Of a DNA stretch of 64,000 nucleotides, positions 34,434-45,072 are shown one piece after another (the first letter of the stretch is position 1; each line of letters begins with the position of its first letter). The stretch lies in assembly GCA_965216875.1 (NCBI GenBank), contig OZ244207.1, forward strand, positions 8,192,001 through 8,256,000, in the 5' to 3' direction. The position numbers were made by a program, and so were the translations under genes. A model generated the notes under the pieces. It was given only the letters and a program-made list of their open reading frames with translations, did not search any database and was not told the DNA's origin. The stretch is from Rubripirellula sp. GTDB taxonomy: Bacteria; Planctomycetota; Planctomycetia; Pirellulales; Pirellulaceae.

Positions 34434-34745
34434 CTACTCCAGCAAGTCGGTCTCGGCCGTTTCAACAACTTCGCTCATCAAACCAGCAGAAACCTCCGTC
34501 GCTTCCACCACGTTTTCTTGCTGGTCTTGGTTCGGCAGCCAACCGTTCTTCTTGGCGATCCGTTTCATTTCTTCCGTGCGTTCCTTGGCGTACTGCGACT
34601 GGATCAGCATGCGGTCGATGTCTTCTTGGCTGGTTCGAAATGGTGCGTATTCTTCTTCGGTCGCAACGATCTCCGGCTCCGGCGGTCGTTCGCATCCAAC
34701 AAAGAACAACGCCCCCATTACAAACATCCATCCAAACCGTGTCAT
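34434..34745 (-). CDS. Small hypothetical lipoprotein
   Basis: Hydrophobic leader ending FVGC, then an acidic helical body. Confidence 0.55.
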   Translation of the reverse strand: MTRFGWMFVMGALFFVGCERPPEPEIVATEEEYAPFRTSQEDIDRMLIQSQYAKERTEEMKRIAKKNGWLPNQDQQENVVEATEVSAGLMSEVVETAETDLLE

Positions 34746-34852
34746 GAAAGGTCTCACTTAGTTGTAGGCTCCGCCCCGGATACAAATCTGATCAAACGTC
34801 AGTCACATGAAAAGTGAACATATGCAAGCTAGCACCTGAACAAACGATCGCT

Positions 34853-35266
34853 CTACGACGACATTCTGCGAAGTCGGTGCAGTTCGCCGCGATTGGGTTT
34901 GGCAAGTCGATTGCTCTTTAAAAACAGGAGAAAGCGATAGGCATCAATGGGGTGTCGGCGATGGGTTGTTGGCCATTCGTTAGTGGCAAAATACCGGAAC
35001 GTTTCTAACCCTTGGTCGCCAAGAGCGGCTGTGCTTTCTGGTGCCAATTCACACACTTCATGCCATCGTTTCACGAGCAGTGTTTCGGCTTGCTCTTCAA
35101 GTTGTGCGTGATCGATTGCAAGAAATGCCGGAATTGAATTCGTGTCGACACGCAAATGTTTGGCAACGAATTCTGGGGATTCAGCAAATTCGTCTCTTAG
35201 AGTCTGGCTTGAAAGCAGTCGTGCAAGTGCTGTCACAAAGTCGATTGGCGCCTCGGAATCATCCAC
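34853..35266 (-). CDS. Small helical protein, putative MNIO partner
   Basis: 8-nt overlap with the DUF692 gene; QAxxLxxKR..P..LG..F..DAxxF pattern resembling DUF692-associated partner domains. Confidence 0.6.
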   Translation of the reverse strand: MDDSEAPIDFVTALARLLSSQTLRDEFAESPEFVAKHLRVDTNSIPAFLAIDHAQLEEQAETLLVKRWHEVCELAPESTAALGDQGLETFRYFATNEWPTTHRRHPIDAYRFLLFLKSNRLAKPNRGELHRLRRMSS

Positions 35267-36044
35267 GCAGATTCTCCAGGGCCTTCAAGTCTGCTTCGAT
35301 TTCGTCCAACGCATCCAGTCGCAGGTCTCGTTCAAGCGTCACGGCTTCAACGCCACTGTATTGGATGACTTCAGCGACCAATTCCAGCAGGTCGTCCTGG
35401 ATGCGGGCCGAATGATGATCGTGGTAGCGTCCGTTGCGAATGCTGTAACCGACGACGTGCAATTGTCTGATGCTTTTGCGGTCAACCTCGTGAAGCCATG
35501 CGATCGGATCATAGCCATGGTTCTTGGCGTTGATAAAGAGGTTGGTGACATCGAGCAACAGGCCGCAACCCGCACGATCGCACAGTCGATTGAGGTACTC
35601 GGTTTCACTGAAGTCGCCGGCCAACTCGAGCGAGGTTGTGATGTTTTCAAGAATGATCGGTTTTTCACACCGTTGGGCAACTTCCACTGCGTGGTCGACC
35701 AGAACAGAAAGTGATGATTCGTCGCGTTGCACGGGATTCAGGTGGCCCAAATCGACTTCGTGAGAGCGCGTGAACGCGACGTGTTCGCTAACCCAATCGG
35801 CATCTGCAGTCTTGGCCACGTGTGTGAACTTTTCGAGCGTTTGTTCGCAAAGCGGCCCCGGAGTTCCAAGGGAAAGACCGAGTCCGTGCACAAAGATCGG
35901 GAATTGCTGTGTCAATTCACGTAGCGTTTCGTCATGTCCGTCGAAGAAATGTTCCGCGGTCACCTCGAGGCTTCGCACCAAATCGGCGCTGTCGAGGATC
36001 CACTCGTGCAATGCTGGTCGGTAACCGACACCTAGCTGCCGCAT
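35259..36044 (-). CDS. DUF692 family multinuclear non-heme iron-dependent oxidase (MNIO)
   Basis: GVGYR, EVTAEHF, HGLGLSLG, WVSEH, LENI, LLLDVTNLFIN, QLHVVG, DHHS, LERD; start moved to the ATG at 36044. Confidence 0.93.
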   Translation of the reverse strand: MRQLGVGYRPALHEWILDSADLVRSLEVTAEHFFDGHDETLRELTQQFPIFVHGLGLSLGTPGPLCEQTLEKFTHVAKTADADWVSEHVAFTRSHEVDLGHLNPVQRDESSLSVLVDHAVEVAQRCEKPIILENITTSLELAGDFSETEYLNRLCDRAGCGLLLDVTNLFINAKNHGYDPIAWLHEVDRKSIRQLHVVGYSIRNGRYHDHHSARIQDDLLELVAEVIQYSGVEAVTLERDLRLDALDEIEADLKALENLRG

Positions 36045-37093
36045 CCGCCACAACCTCCTCCGCCGCCACATCCCCCGCCGCAACTGCTGCAGCTACTGCA
36101 CCCGCTACAGCTCGAGAATCCAGATGACCCACAACTTCCGCCGGACGAGCGGGGCAGTTCGCCGGTCACCTTGTAGTACACCAAAATCCCAACAAAGAAG
36201 AATCCAAAGTAAAGCAGAGCCCCCATTTTGACAACGATTCGTCCCATGTCTTCTACGTAGAAGACGGACCAGATCGCAAGTCCGGCCAGTGAGTACAAGA
36301 CGACCGCTGGGATCAACGCCATTCCTCCGAGGTCGTTTCGAAACACCTCGCCCTCGTCTGGCGTGTCGGTCTGTGTGAACACCAGTGTTGCCGTTGAAAC
36401 GAGCAAACCGAACACCAGGAAGCCGACTCGGGTGTGGCCGTTTGCGAGGGAGTCGATCAACTGGGCGATTCCCGTTCCGCTAACAACAATCAAGGCGGCG
36501 TGGTTGATGATGTCGGCGTCGATCCAAAGGGCGCGCACGACGAGATTGGCGACACATGCAACGACAAAGGCGGCAAAAAAGAAATTCAAGAACGTTCGCC
36601 CGTCGACATCACGCAATGCCAGGAACGAGACCGTCGCAACGGCCGCGGCACCAACGTAGATCGCACCAGCAACCACATACTCGTTCGACAACAGACTCAG
36701 GCTCTTTCGCTCGGGGCGAGAGACATCCAGTTTTCGCCCCAGCTTTTTGTGGTAGCCACAGTGGATGCAAACAACAGCACCTTCGGCAATCTTTTTGCCG
36801 CAGGTTTCGCACGGCACTTTTTTCTCGGGGTGAGACTTGAGCGCAGGTGCCGAGGCCGCGGCCAAGAATGCGCCTGCAGTTGCCGCCGCCGATTGCGCCG
36901 GCGTGCTTTGCGAAGGATCGCGTTTGAGTCCTGTGGTTTTCTTTTCCGTCTGGGGCGTTTCGCTTTGTCCTTTGATCTTTGGAACAGAAAACGATTCACC
37001 ACACCCGGGGCATTTCGCTCGCTTTCCCGAATGGTGCGCGGGAACGCGAAGTTTCTTGCCGCACTTGCATCGAAGTTTCAACATTCCGCTCAT
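36032..37093 (-). CDS. Zinc-ribbon/multi-TM membrane protein with C-terminal Gly/Ser/Cys tail (TIGR04222-like, putative MNIO substrate)
   Basis: CKC..CPGC and CETC..CIHC; about 6 hydrophobic segments; tail SSGGSCGSSGFSSCSGCSSCSSCGGGCGGGGGCGGCGS; GGAGG upstream of the ATG at 37093. Confidence 0.8.
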   Translation of the reverse strand: MSGMLKLRCKCGKKLRVPAHHSGKRAKCPGCGESFSVPKIKGQSETPQTEKKTTGLKRDPSQSTPAQSAAATAGAFLAAASAPALKSHPEKKVPCETCGKKIAEGAVVCIHCGYHKKLGRKLDVSRPERKSLSLLSNEYVVAGAIYVGAAAVATVSFLALRDVDGRTFLNFFFAAFVVACVANLVVRALWIDADIINHAALIVVSGTGIAQLIDSLANGHTRVGFLVFGLLVSTATLVFTQTDTPDEGEVFRNDLGGMALIPAVVLYSLAGLAIWSVFYVEDMGRIVVKMGALLYFGFFFVGILVYYKVTGELPRSSGGSCGSSGFSSCSGCSSCSSCGGGCGGGGGCGGCGS

Positions 37094-37869
37094 TCGTCCT
37101 CCCCGGTGACTTCGAGCAATGTGACCTCTTCGGGAATCGCGTCGATCGCTGCGGCGGCTTCGGCAACCCACTGAATCATCGTCGCATAGATCGTTCGAAC
37201 GGCATCGACGTTCGCGAGATCGCTTTCGGCAACATCGCAGATCCGTTCGATTGAATCTTGTTCAAGATCGAATCGGCTTGCTGCTTCGATTAAGGTTTCA
37301 CGCGCACCCTCAGGCCGTGCGACGGGATCGGACTTCAATGCCAGAGCTGCGCCCAGCGTTCGAGCCAACGCGGCGTGATCGCGTTTGAATTTAGGCATCA
37401 GGTCGCGTGCACGCTTGTGTCGAGTCAGGTACGCGCTTTGCATTCGCAGCAACAGGTTCTTTAGCTCCTGCTCACACCTTAGCCTGAGGTGGCTCGAATC
37501 GATTTGAAGACCTTCCAGTACATCCTCACCAGTAATCAGCTGGTGGCAGCGTTTCATTTCCAAAAACGTAATAGGGAAAACGTCGGTTGAGGCCCGCATC
37601 TCTTCGGGAGAGTGCACCATTGGCGTGATGCGTTCGCTCCCCTGGACGAGGTCGTAGGCAGACGCCAATTTCTCGAGCGTGCTTGAATGAACGTTGTCGA
37701 TGACGATCAACACATGAATTGGAATTGATTCGTCAGCGACCACATTCTGCTGAGCATGCGGTCCGTGAAGGATGATGGAAACGAGCGAGGGGCCCATCGC
37801 TGTCGGAATCGTTTCCTTGAGCGATTGGATCACCGTGGCTTTCGATGCCGGTCGTCTACGAAAAAACAT
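37090..37869 (-). CDS. Nucleotidyltransferase-fold protein (degenerate active site)
   Basis: LVSIILHGP, DVFPITFLEM, GEDVL, LRLRCEQELK; GS and DxD motifs not retained. Confidence 0.6.
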   Translation of the reverse strand: MFFRRRPASKATVIQSLKETIPTAMGPSLVSIILHGPHAQQNVVADESIPIHVLIVIDNVHSSTLEKLASAYDLVQGSERITPMVHSPEEMRASTDVFPITFLEMKRCHQLITGEDVLEGLQIDSSHLRLRCEQELKNLLLRMQSAYLTRHKRARDLMPKFKRDHAALARTLGAALALKSDPVARPEGARETLIEAASRFDLEQDSIERICDVAESDLANVDAVRTIYATMIQWVAEAAAAIDAIPEEVTLLEVTGEDE

Positions 37870-37983: not shown

Positions 37984-40386
<2,403 letters not shown>

Positions 40387-42202: not shown

Positions 42203-43246
42203 CTAAGCGGCAAGTGCGTTGTTGAATTTGGGATGGAGCGGTTTCTTTAACAACTCGCAGATGTCACGCAGCGTGTTGCGCCAACTTTCAGCCCCAGCCG
42301 AATCGCCCAGCTCTGAATAGAGTTTGATCAGCTCGAGAGCTCCGCAAGCCACTTCCCACGTGTAGAGTTCACGATCTCGGTCGCGTTGTTGTTCCAACAG
42401 CACGTCGATCGCCTTGTCCTTACGCCCGGAGGCCAACCAATAGTCCGAGAGAGCCTCGTAGGTTCGATCGGTCAAGGTTTCGCCCATTGGTTTTACCGCA
42501 GCTCGATAAGCGCGCTCGGCACCCGATTGATCGCCCAATCGAGCCAATGCGCTGGCTCGAATCGCATGTAAAGCGCGGTCACACTGCAGGTCTTCCGGCG
42601 CGTTTGACAATCCGAGGTCAGCAAATCGAAGCTGCAACTCATAGTTGGCGTCGAGATGTTCAATAAACGCCATCCGTGCGTATTGCCAGCAGATGTAAAA
42701 ACTCGATGCCCCGCTGCAGGCTTCGGCTGCGACGAATCTGCGGTCCATGTATTCGCGGGCCAACTTGAGGTCGCCCAAATCGAGATACATTTCGCTCATC
42801 GTCGAGAGATAGATGCAGCTATGATCTGATTTTGGCTCGCAGATCCGGTCCAAGTACTCGTAGCTCGCGATGACTTCATTTTGGTATCCGTGCGGATCGC
42901 GACTTGCCATTCGCGAAGCGAGTACGTTGTTCGACATGATGCCAACAGGCATGTGAGCGTATTTGGGATCACGTGCCAAAATCGCATTCTTGACGAGCAA
43001 TGTGTTCGCTTCGGCTGCGCGGCCGATGTCCTCGAGCGATTGTGCGAGGAAGTGCCTGATCCACAGTCCGAATTCGTCCTCACCCGCCAGTTGCAGCGAT
43101 TGCTCGTAGTACTGGACACTCTCTCGCGCGTTGCCGTGATGGAAACCACGCGCGAAGACTGTGAACATCTGCTCGACGACGTGGGGGCAATCGGGGGCGT
43201 TTCGTCGGCGATCACAGTATTCCTCATACCAGTCCAAAACGTTCAT
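42203..43246 (-). CDS. Helical-repeat (TPR-like) protein coupled to an HSP90 paralog
   Basis: Repeated LG(D)..A helical units; ATGA overlap with the upstream gene. Confidence 0.55.
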   Translation of the reverse strand: MNVLDWYEEYCDRRRNAPDCPHVVEQMFTVFARGFHHGNARESVQYYEQSLQLAGEDEFGLWIRHFLAQSLEDIGRAAEANTLLVKNAILARDPKYAHMPVGIMSNNVLASRMASRDPHGYQNEVIASYEYLDRICEPKSDHSCIYLSTMSEMYLDLGDLKLAREYMDRRFVAAEACSGASSFYICWQYARMAFIEHLDANYELQLRFADLGLSNAPEDLQCDRALHAIRASALARLGDQSGAERAYRAAVKPMGETLTDRTYEALSDYWLASGRKDKAIDVLLEQQRDRDRELYTWEVACGALELIKLYSELGDSAGAESWRNTLRDICELLKKPLHPKFNNALAA

Positions 43247-45072
43247 GGTTGAATCAGTTGAGTCAATGCTTGGTTGAGCGTTTTGAGAGAGTCGACTCCT
43301 TCTTTCGTGTCGAGCTTGGCTTGGCACAGCAAACGAGTCATGTGCACGAGCAAGTTCATCGGCGCATCCTCGAGCTTGCCAGACTCGGCGAGTTCGTTGA
43401 ACTGTTGGATCAATGGCGACGCCGTATTGAGATAGAAGATGCCATCGAGATCAGGAATGGTCGATTCTTTTTGGCTAACCCAGTCGGGCAATATGTCGGC
43501 GATTCCGGGCATCAACGCATCGTCCTCGATCGCTCGCTTTGCGTTTCGCAGCACTTCCGCTTCGGGCGGGTAGCTAACCACGGCACAAAGCTGCGATGGC
43601 TCGAACGAAGCGGTCACAAACCGCTCCTGCAATTCAAGCTGCCCAAATCGATCCAACAAGGCTTGGTACCGTGTACTTGGTGATCGCTTGACCAACGAAT
43701 CCATCACGCTGTCACACGAAACCAATTTGGCTTGTGGATTGTGTTGAGCATATCGATGTAAAAAGGGTTGCACGCCAAACCAGCTTGCGTCGATCACTGG
43801 CGCAGGGTGGGCATTGGCAAGTAGGCGTTCGGCGGGAGAAACGATTGATTGGGAGCGGAAGTATATTTCGCTTGAGCCGCTCAGGCATTGATCGATCGTT
43901 TTTCGTCCCTGCGAGGTTTCAAGTTCAATACTGTCGACAAGCCTTTCAAACAAACTGTCGTCGCTCGACACCCAGCCCACGATCAAGTCAGTGTGTGAGC
44001 GTACGATCTCGTTCCATAGTTCGGGCTTGCTAGTCGAGAGCTCTTCAAGCGTCTTGAGTAACTGTTCTTCGACAGCTTGGGAAACGAGTTCGAAGCCTTC
44101 GTCTTCGTGAATGCTCTCGCGCGAGGCGGTCGGTTGCAGCATCGGACTGCTGACATACGCGCGGACAAATTTCGCCCAGTTCGGCAGCAACGTCCGATGA
44201 TTGCTGCAAATGAACATGTTACGGATGTAGATCGATGCGTCACCGAACTCCTGCAGCGACGCGATGGAGCGTTGTGGAACGTAGAACGCCCCCGACAAAG
44301 GCACTTTGATCGAGTCTAAGTTCAACTGGATGGTCCAATCCCGAAGCGGGAGAACGCAGAGTGGTTTCTGAATCGATCGAGACTCCAAGAAATCGTTCAT
44401 CTCTCGGTCAAATTCGTCGGCCTCCCAAGGTGCTTGGCCGCGATTGGCGGGAACCGATTGCCCTTCGAGATAGATCGGGTGCGGAAGCAGATCGCAGTAT
44501 TCCGTGATCAGGTCACCAAGGACACGCTCGTTGAGTAGATGACGCATCGCGGGTTTGCAAAACAAGCGGATCCGCGTGCCGACGGTGTCGCGACTGCCCG
44601 GTTCCATTTCATACGAGCCGTCGCCGCGGCTGCGCCAGCGAACCGGTTTTCCATCAGGCTTGCCGCTGAGCGTTTCAAGTTCGACCGATTCGGCGACCAA
44701 GAACGCACTGAGGAACCCGAGTCCAAACTGGCCAATCAGCTGATCGAGTTCGCGGCTTTCCCCAAACGCATCCGATTCGCGAAGGTGCCGCGTGTAGCCG
44801 CTGCCAATGGTCGTGAGGTACTCGACAATCTCGTTCTCGGTGAGGCCGGAGCCGTTATCTTCGATCTCAAGCAGGTGAAGCGAGGCATCGATTCGCACAT
44901 CGATTCGCGGTTCGTACACCTGGCCTTCGCTTTCGATTTGTCGCCGCGAGCAGGAGTCGTGGGCGTTTTGAAGCAGTTCACGGACGCCCACGCGGCGATC
45001 CGCGTAAAGATGCTCGGCGAGAACCTGAAGCAAACCGGGGAGGTGAAGTTTGAAATCGTTTTCCGTGCTCAT
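43243..45072 (-). CDS. HSP90/HtpG-family GHKL ATPase (divergent paralog)
   Basis: RELLQNAHD, EDNGSG, IGQFGLGFLSAFLVA, GTRI, LLPNWAKFV, SRESI. Confidence 0.88.
   Translation of the reverse strand: MSTENDFKLHLPGLLQVLAEHLYADRRVGVRELLQNAHDSCSRRQIESEGQVYEPRIDVRIDASLHLLEIEDNGSGLTENEIVEYLTTIGSGYTRHLRESDAFGESRELDQLIGQFGLGFLSAFLVAESVELETLSGKPDGKPVRWRSRGDGSYEMEPGSRDTVGTRIRLFCKPAMRHLLNERVLGDLITEYCDLLPHPIYLEGQSVPANRGQAPWEADEFDREMNDFLESRSIQKPLCVLPLRDWTIQLNLDSIKVPLSGAFYVPQRSIASLQEFGDASIYIRNMFICSNHRTLLPNWAKFVRAYVSSPMLQPTASRESIHEDEGFELVSQAVEEQLLKTLEELSTSKPELWNEIVRSHTDLIVGWVSSDDSLFERLVDSIELETSQGRKTIDQCLSGSSEIYFRSQSIVSPAERLLANAHPAPVIDASWFGVQPFLHRYAQHNPQAKLVSCDSVMDSLVKRSPSTRYQALLDRFGQLELQERFVTASFEPSQLCAVVSYPPEAEVLRNAKRAIEDDALMPGIADILPDWVSQKESTIPDLDGIFYLNTASPLIQQFNELAESGKLEDAPMNLLVHMTRLLCQAKLDTKEGVDSLKTLNQALTQLIQP

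Follow-up and report, generated by a model that had tools for sequence, protein, structure and literature searches.

A conserved four-gene MNIO cassette in Rubripirellula as a candidate system for modifying the cysteine-rich tail of a membrane protein

Introduction

A stretch of 64,000 nucleotides (nt) from Rubripirellula sp. of the Planctomycetota (assembly GCA_965216875.1, contig OZ244207.1, positions 8,192,001 to 8,256,000; hereafter the window) contains a cassette of four overlapping genes encoding a nucleotidyltransferase (NTase)-fold protein (gene 1), a membrane protein with a Cys-containing Gly/Ser tail (gene 2), an enzyme of the MNIO (DUF692) family (gene 3) and a small helical partner (gene 4). 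The cassette is real and conserved, and is a variant of a class so far described by computation alone. On balance, it probably converts tail Cys of the membrane protein to thiooxazoles, in a protein-templated maturation resembling that of RiPPs, peptides made by the ribosome and modified after translation.

Gly/Ser/Cys-tailed TIGR04222 membrane proteins have been proposed in silico as MNIO substrates, alongside partners named 'PME-type 2', and MNIO modification of integral membrane proteins was posed as an open question in the same study (PMC12452194; Microb Genom 2025). In the literature searched, only this study and its preprint treat MNIO and TIGR04222 together. An initial annotation of the window had described the modification of such tails as uncharacterised and underrated what was in print, as their pairing with MNIOs had already been proposed in silico.

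Conservation of the cassette and the tail as putative substrate

The four minus-strand genes and their overlaps, as first annotated, were reproduced when the sequence and its open reading frames (ORFs) were checked: genes 1 and 2 share an ATGA at 37090-37093, while the overlaps are 13 nt between genes 2 and 3 and 8 nt between genes 3 and 4. A metagenome scan on MNIO motifs alone returned 57 loci, and the 54 with at least 45% identity fell into 38 clusters at 90%. Each count leaves out the clusters with too little flank. Where at least 150 nt were available upstream, 28 of 32 clusters have the tail gene; where at least 100 nt were available downstream, 32 of 33 have the partner; and where the upstream flank reached at least 1.5 kb, 18 of 22 have the NTase and 20 of these 22 a tail gene. 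Among 37 more distant MNIO loci, a tail was seen in three (all TIGR04222), a match to the partner profile in two and an NTase in one, these controls being for the most part short (1.5 kb flanks), with a partner profile that is clade-specific. Since gene order is kept on many unrelated contigs and the terminal Cys-Gly pattern occurs once in this genome, the cassette is more than a chance assembly.

The main evidence for the tail as the substrate comes from the variety of the genes upstream of the MNIO. Their bodies have one helix (61-93 aa), three helices, four helices plus ribbons or six helices plus ribbons, or are TIGR04222 proteins, and the tail is the only feature common to all. Because the bodies vary and the tail alone is constant, the tail is the putative substrate. 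The eight Cys first noted in the tail of gene 2 were located at C321, 329, 332, 335, 338, 342, 348 and 351, with Gly following five and Ser following three; C332, C338, C342, C348 and C351 are invariant in 9/9 aligned sequences, and the terminal C-G(3-5)-C-G-G-C pattern has a single occurrence in the six-frame translated genome.

Other substrates were looked for in the locus and in the genome (99% complete), where gene 3 is the sole MNIO. There is no small Cys-rich precursor ORF in the locus flanks and no other MNIO substrate candidate in the genome, which also yielded no match to DUF2282 or DUF2063 (positive controls worked for both Pfam searches) and no Buf2-like or EGKCG-repeat ORF. These ORF and family searches agree with the initial annotation, which had seen no separate small precursor. 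Its proposal of a RiPP-like system acting on a membrane-tethered Cys tail, and the co-occurrence in homologous loci on which this depends, are likewise supported by the gene neighbourhoods, by the lack of a separate precursor and by the tail as the only shared feature.

Several variants of the cassette were observed. Precursors occur in tandem in L056, L062 and L078, with two zinc-ribbon precursors before one MNIO in L056:3-1634 and L062:1920-3480, and several short tail peptides in L078. The order is rearranged to MNIO, partner, NTase and six-helix tail protein in L055:1800-4773. A predicted lipoprotein gene lies between tail gene and MNIO in L066-L069 and L106, in L078, L082 and L099, and in L091; that of L078 has a DUF2207 N-terminal domain, and by eye an ion-channel-like membrane gene was made out upstream in both L078 and L091. 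What is apparently a decayed cassette in L170:2920-4480 (G565) consists of an NTase gene, then a TIGR04222-like ORF that is truncated, and a remnant resembling the partner. The system of G792 is split (L171:3017-4035, L205), with the NTase and a 72-aa single-helix peptide with nine Cys on one contig, while a related MNIO and its partner, without a precursor beside them, lie on the other.

The MNIO, its partner and the expected chemistry

The assignment of gene 3 to DUF692 was upheld by the PF05114 hidden Markov model (HMM) at 222.3 bits (gathering cut-off 25). Its His/Glu/Asp motifs are intact, as annotated, with H53, H88, E133, D165, N168, H196, D209, H211 and E238 aligning identically with TglH (8HCI), and these nine metal-site positions are invariant in a three-member clade alignment. 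NCBIfam scores were 184.8 bits for BufB, 151.9 for HvfB, 107 for ApyH, 52 for MbnB and 38 for ChrH; gene 3 misses the BufB and HvfB equivalog cut-offs (310 and 360) and lies below every NCBIfam equivalog cut-off. It is an intact MNIO and, judged by profile, closest to the bufferin-type enzymes. A scan of genome contigs with a single MNIO as query gave two distant loci only. Most other MNIOs of the phylum (L116-L139) sit after secreted-looking precursors with Cys-Lys-Gly repeats, which resemble Buf2-type bufferins (family name assigned by eye).

Gene 4 was modelled confidently (predicted local distance difference test, pLDDT, 93.5) and has no Pfam match; the DUF2063 signature matched 0/33 members of its family. 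A fold search against 48,161 solved chains placed NGO1945 (3DEE) first (Z 7.0, root-mean-square deviation 2.9, 78 aligned), TglI second (Z 5.5, deviation 3.9, 128 aligned) and MbnC chains at ranks 7 and 24; these Z-scores are of middling size, and with Foldseek nothing fell under E 0.001. Since three different known MNIO partners lead the ranking, and given its position after the MNIO gene and the missing DUF2063 signature, the modelled protein fits a 'PME-type 2' partner as defined in PMC12452194.

The expected chemistry is suggested by a swap of enzymes. In one genome (G599, L187:3668-5658) the NTase and a TIGR04222 tail gene are followed by an SbtM-family radical S-adenosylmethionine (SAM) gene, which scores 458 bits against an SbtM cut-off of 350 and is the only member of its family in 401 genomes of the phylum; no MNIO was found in this genome (96% complete). 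SbtM takes four hydrogens from Cys to form thiooxazole (accessible part of PMC11002830). Bufferin- and HvfB-type MNIOs make 5-thiooxazole, and FonBC prefers a small residue (Gly or Ala) after Cys (accessible part of 10.1101/2025.11.18.689057). One tail type adjoins enzymes of two unrelated families whose known product is the same, which favors 5-thiooxazole on the strength of a single swap locus, and by this analogy the best reading of the modification would be a 5-thiooxazole formed from Cys of a cytoplasmic tail.

The membrane protein and the orientation of its tail

Gene 2 has 17 Cys in total and six hydrophobic helices, found alike by model and by hydropathy. The eight Cys of its ribbons are invariant in 9/9 aligned sequences; the ribbon profile matches 123/401 genomes of the order, at full length in G000 and G028 only, and the ribbons are a module often seen in this order on proteins that are otherwise unrelated. 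Near full-length homologues account for eight of 33 matches. The six-helix homologues with known context (G007, G028 and L055) adjoin MNIO and partner in 3/3 cases and the NTase in 2/3. A fold search with gene 2 (model mean pLDDT 64) gave no match under E 0.001, an Atlas search gave one match at 0.75 that is a lead only, and a metagenome scan with the precursor alignment gave no match.

The comparison with TIGR04222-type proteins in the initial annotation needs one correction, as the HMM check of gene 2 found no match at E 0.1 (NCBIfam domain cut-off 43); one-, three-, four- and six-helix relatives all miss the model and eight complete true members match it. When profiles were compared with tails removed, the gene 2 family aligned with its four-helix (99%) and three-helix (98%) relatives, these two forms aligned in turn with TIGR04222 proteins at 96-97%, the alignments spanning a gap of ~100 residues, and the gene 2 family matched TIGR04222 directly at 88%. 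These probabilities are pairwise profile scores on membrane helices, which can be inflated, and rest on shared motifs, namely GPxFL, G-x-x-R/K...G and FL, which suggest that gene 2 has a three-helix membrane core homologous to that of TIGR04222 proteins.

From its sequence, the tail of gene 2 is quite likely cytoplasmic. Three features place both ends of gene 2 inside: it is without a signal peptide, its zinc ribbons are N-terminal, and its helices are even in number (six, and four in relatives). Lys/Arg counts on the tail side versus the other side are 6 to 4 for gene 2 and 11 to 0 for single-helix forms (5/5). For rows with the expected helix number they are 44 to 20 for six-helix (7/12 rows), 32 to 12 for four-helix (7/13) and 12 to 6 for three-helix forms (3/10), with uncorrected totals of 61 to 48, 47 to 37 and 27 to 31, respectively. 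A motif-anchored count over 43/61 rows gave 3.3-5.7 versus 2.3-3.1 per protein. True TIGR04222 proteins have an extra hydrophobic segment before the tail, which would flip the tail outward if it crosses the membrane, and their charge count of 111 to 198 agrees with the periplasmic prediction of PMC12452194.

The NTase-fold protein

Gene 1 itself has no Pfam match, however, its family is large (2,143 representatives at E 0.001) and the family profile gives weak matches to AadA/ANT/KNTase structures (best E 0.0024). NTP_transf_2 is matched by 16/93 relatives, and Atlas neighbors were found at 0.96. The family profile thus weakly indicates a Pol-beta NTase fold, and to this extent the NTase-fold label of the initial annotation stands, although the protein is probably not an active enzyme here. 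In Pol-beta NTases the catalytic motif is G[SG]-x(9-13)-D-x-[DE], whereas the window protein shows GP and lacks all the acidic residues. Neither this protein nor any other row of its 10-row subclade retains the GS...SDxN motif of the family, while the gene itself is kept. Across the family the second catalytic acid (Asp/Glu) is present in 1/73 rows, with Asp-x-Asn in most.

The neighborhoods of the family extend beyond MNIOs. NTase matches occur at 68 places in 63/401 genomes of the phylum, and 49 of these places were examined. The NTase lies beside a TPM-domain membrane protein in 30/49 loci (about half from one family), with LemA in 26/30 of those, and the tails of the TPM-domain neighbors are Gly-rich and Cys-free where the gene end is visible. 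A Cys-tail gene and MNIO follow the NTase in 7/49 loci, the window locus counted, and a Cys-tail or TIGR04222-type gene with no adjacent MNIO in a further 4/49 (one SbtM, one split system, two truncated). In a quick tree of 73 rows with midpoint root only, a branch (SH-aLRT 92) separates all 35 Cys-tail-type members from the TPM-linked ones. LemA or TPM as a cassette member was rejected, neither gene being found in this genome or in MNIO loci, and a plasmid search with an NTase homologue gave no match.

With a Gly-tailed or TIGR04222-type membrane gene adjoining the NTase in 41/49 loci, MNIO present or not, the simplest reading is that gene 1 goes with Gly-tailed membrane proteins and not with the MNIO as such. 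It may serve the tail protein as a non-catalytic adaptor and not be a second tailoring enzyme, a suggestion to which we give slightly under an even chance. A far-reaching idea, which we regard as doubtful, is that the family is a dedicated reader of Gly-rich cytoplasmic membrane-protein tails, with an old NTase/Gly-tail/LemA envelope module, its tail having gained Cys, rebuilt into a metal-responsive switch in which MNIO, or SbtM in anaerobes, would install thiooxazoles and metal loading of the tail would control binding of the pseudo-NTase. TIGR04222 proteins weakly resemble DUF2207_C, and DUF2207 proteins accompany LemA.

Proposed mechanism and alternatives

In the mechanism that we propose, gene 2 would insert into the inner membrane so that its zinc ribbons and its Gly/Ser/Cys tail face the cytoplasm. 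As is known of the family, the MNIO would act together with its small partner as a di-iron oxidase. This enzyme would oxidize tail Cys, likeliest those in the terminal Cys-Gly repeats, each of which would lose 4 Da on becoming a 5-thiooxazole, while the NTase-fold protein may serve as a non-catalytic adaptor. The product would be a membrane-tethered array of thiol-bearing heterocycles that, by analogy, could bind soft metals such as Cu(I) and act as a metal sink or sensor at the inner membrane face.

Several observations weigh against this proposal. The SbtM swap is a single locus, Ser follows three of the eight tail Cys, and gene 3 could differ in chemistry because it lies below all NCBIfam equivalog cut-offs. 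As to orientation, the uncorrected three-helix charge totals disfavor the tail side, an Arg/Lys pair conserved in the loop that joins core helices 2 and 3 lands on the predicted outside, and in PMC12452194 TIGR04222 tails are predicted periplasmic and many TIGR04222 genes are without an MNIO. As to the cassette, no NTase was found in G028, which has the three other genes, 8/49 NTase loci have no Gly-tail neighbor, and no metal-resistance genes or regulator were found beside the cassette in the loci viewed.

Of the alternatives, the one we take most seriously, although it is itself unlikely, keeps the tail as the MNIO target with another outcome: an oxazolone-thioamide, a ChrH-like macrocycle, C-terminal excision as by TglH, ApyH or MovX, or cleavage of the tail as a peptide with the body as leader. 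The position of the MNIO under all equivalog cut-offs and the short TglI/NGO1945-like partners would suit a different chemistry, and the one-helix bodies suggest a mere anchor or leader. However, the MNIO is most similar to thiooxazole-forming enzymes, the SbtM swap also points to thiooxazole, and tail release would sit poorly with the loci viewed, which have no recurrent protease or exporter gene. That the NTase-fold protein is instead an active second tailoring or signaling enzyme, which nucleotidylates the tail or makes a nucleotide signal so that there are two modifications, is improbable: although its gene and the tail gene are tightly coupled and GS plus the first Asp are kept in 21-22/31 MNIO-linked and 26/30 TPM-linked members, the second catalytic position is usually Asn and the subclade of the window protein has lost the whole motif while keeping the gene.

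It is a shade less probable still that the tail is no MNIO substrate at all and binds metal unmodified, metallothionein-like or with an iron-sulfur cluster, with the MNIO acting elsewhere or co-inherited as a passenger. About one third of genomes with TIGR04222 genes are without an MNIO (PMC12452194, Table 3), NTase and tail gene lie apart from MNIO and partner in G792, and no tail gene is shown in L070, L091 and L104. Nonetheless, the linkage is strong, the MNIO start is embedded in tail codons, the genome has no other substrate, and in G599 the MNIO is replaced by an unrelated Cys-modifying enzyme.

Genomic setting

The features of the locus are collected in Table 1. The MNIO ATG itself is created across Gly-Cys codons of the gene 2 tail, and such a Gly-Cys-derived start is also present in 10/31 loci where the tail abuts the MNIO; the upstream GGAGGAGG may serve as ribosome-binding site for the MNIO. 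Promoter and terminator scans of the locus gave signals no better than shuffled sequence.

Table 1. Features of the MNIO cassette and its insertion (window coordinates).
Feature	Position	Strand	Description
Gene 1	37090..37869	-	Predicted NTase-fold protein, Pol-beta superfamily, 259 aa; catalytic motif degenerate
Gene 2	36032..37093	-	Putative precursor membrane protein, 353 aa; two zinc ribbons, six helices, Gly/Ser/Cys tail
Zinc ribbons	36758..37069	-	Two Cys4 motifs, gene 2 residues 9-31 and 95-112; weak Pfam Zn_ribbon match
Tail	36035..36148	-	Gly/Ser tail with 8 Cys, disordered, predicted modified core; pLDDT <50 for residues 312-353
Shine-Dalgarno-like GGAGGAGG	36054..36061	-	Made of tail Gly codons, 9 nt upstream of MNIO ATG
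Gene 3	35259..36044	-	MNIO (DUF692, PF05114) enzyme, 261 aa, metal ligands intact
Gene 4	34853..35266	-	Putative MNIO partner of 'PME-type 2' kind, 137 aa, GTG start, all-helical, without RRE domain
Small lipoprotein	34434..34757	-	Predicted; within insertion; lipobox-like single Cys

The cassette lies in an insertion of ~3.8 kb between the stop of a CehA/McbA hydrolase gene (37984) and the start of a sulfatase gene (34205), the small lipoprotein gene included. The insertion is absent from the equivalent site in both same-genus genomes examined, where the flanking genes are direct neighbors, 79-86% identical with 120-130 nt between aligned ends, and no MNIO or NTase match was found in either genome (84% and 97% complete). 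Because the block is missing at this site, the cassette is a discrete, patchily distributed unit. The CehA/McbA-family metallohydrolase upstream (37984-40386, minus strand) is kept in the genus without the cassette and is therefore not a cassette member. The small lipoprotein is probably a passenger; used as query it had no match in G001, G002, G007 and G028, and it was rejected as an MNIO precursor, having one Cys and not being conserved.

Elsewhere in the window (42203-45072, minus strand) lies a divergent Hsp90/HtpG-like ATPase gene with weak HSP90 and HATPase_c_3 matches, which overlaps a tetratricopeptide repeat protein gene and was not found in 16 kb stretches of G001 and G002 around shared flanking genes. 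A six-frame stretch near G000:C1 2493024-2493257 (minus strand) reads as a long Cys-Ser repeat and is probably the opposite strand of a simple repeat.

Relation to known systems and significance

The cassette most resembles the TIGR04222-MNIO-PME-type 2 clusters of PMC12452194, which likewise have a membrane protein without signal peptide and with a disordered Gly/Ser/Cys tail, directly followed by an MNIO and a short DUF2063-like partner, and share the homologous three-helix core. Unlike TIGR04222 proteins, gene 2 lacks a soluble insert of ~100 residues and adds zinc ribbons and three helices, its tail is predicted cytoplasmic rather than periplasmic, and there is a fourth conserved gene, the NTase-fold one, which is unnamed in the main text of that study. 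In gene order, partner type and Cys count the cassette is also like adjamnio-I of the same study (122-293 aa, 8-21 Cys, MNIO, PME-type 2), although gene 2 is longer, the two being compared by description only.

Bufferins and captophorins (BufABC, HvfABC, FonABC) include the closest characterized MNIOs by profile and share Cys-Gly repeats and the pairing of enzyme and partner. However, they are Sec-exported soluble peptides with DUF2063-RRE partners of ~250 aa, whereas the window cassette has a membrane-bound substrate without signal peptide and a 137-aa partner. The SbtM system (TIGR04082) is linked through the G599 locus, where an SbtM-family gene comes after the NTase and tail gene in place of the MNIO, but SbtM is an unrelated anaerobic radical SAM enzyme, and none was found in the window genome. 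In NTase-TPM-LemA operons a sister NTase subfamily stands beside a membrane protein with a Gly-rich C-terminal tail; these tails are Cys-free and usually end in Trp, with no MNIO nearby. A link of the NTase to MNIO, TPM or LemA was not described in the papers listed from the literature searched, which lay outside subscription journals and the supplement PDF of PMC12452194, and the terms nucleotidyl, zinc and LemA do not occur in the accessible part of its preprint. The NTase-fold gene, precursors other than TIGR04222 proteins and a cytoplasmic rather than periplasmic tail were not found in that literature.

The cassette family eases a test of MNIO action on membrane proteins, as it offers natural precursors of 61-130 aa and an identified partner, and the SbtM swap leads to a concrete prediction of 4 Da lost per Cys and absorbance at 305 nm. 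If the proposal is true, RiPP heterocycle chemistry extends to a membrane-tethered, probably cytoplasmic protein tail, and a first approach opens to a widespread NTase-fold family as well as to the TPM/LemA operons beside it. Were the doubtful idea of a tail reader and switch also to hold, the system would be one of membrane signaling tuned by RiPP chemistry, rather than a metallophore.

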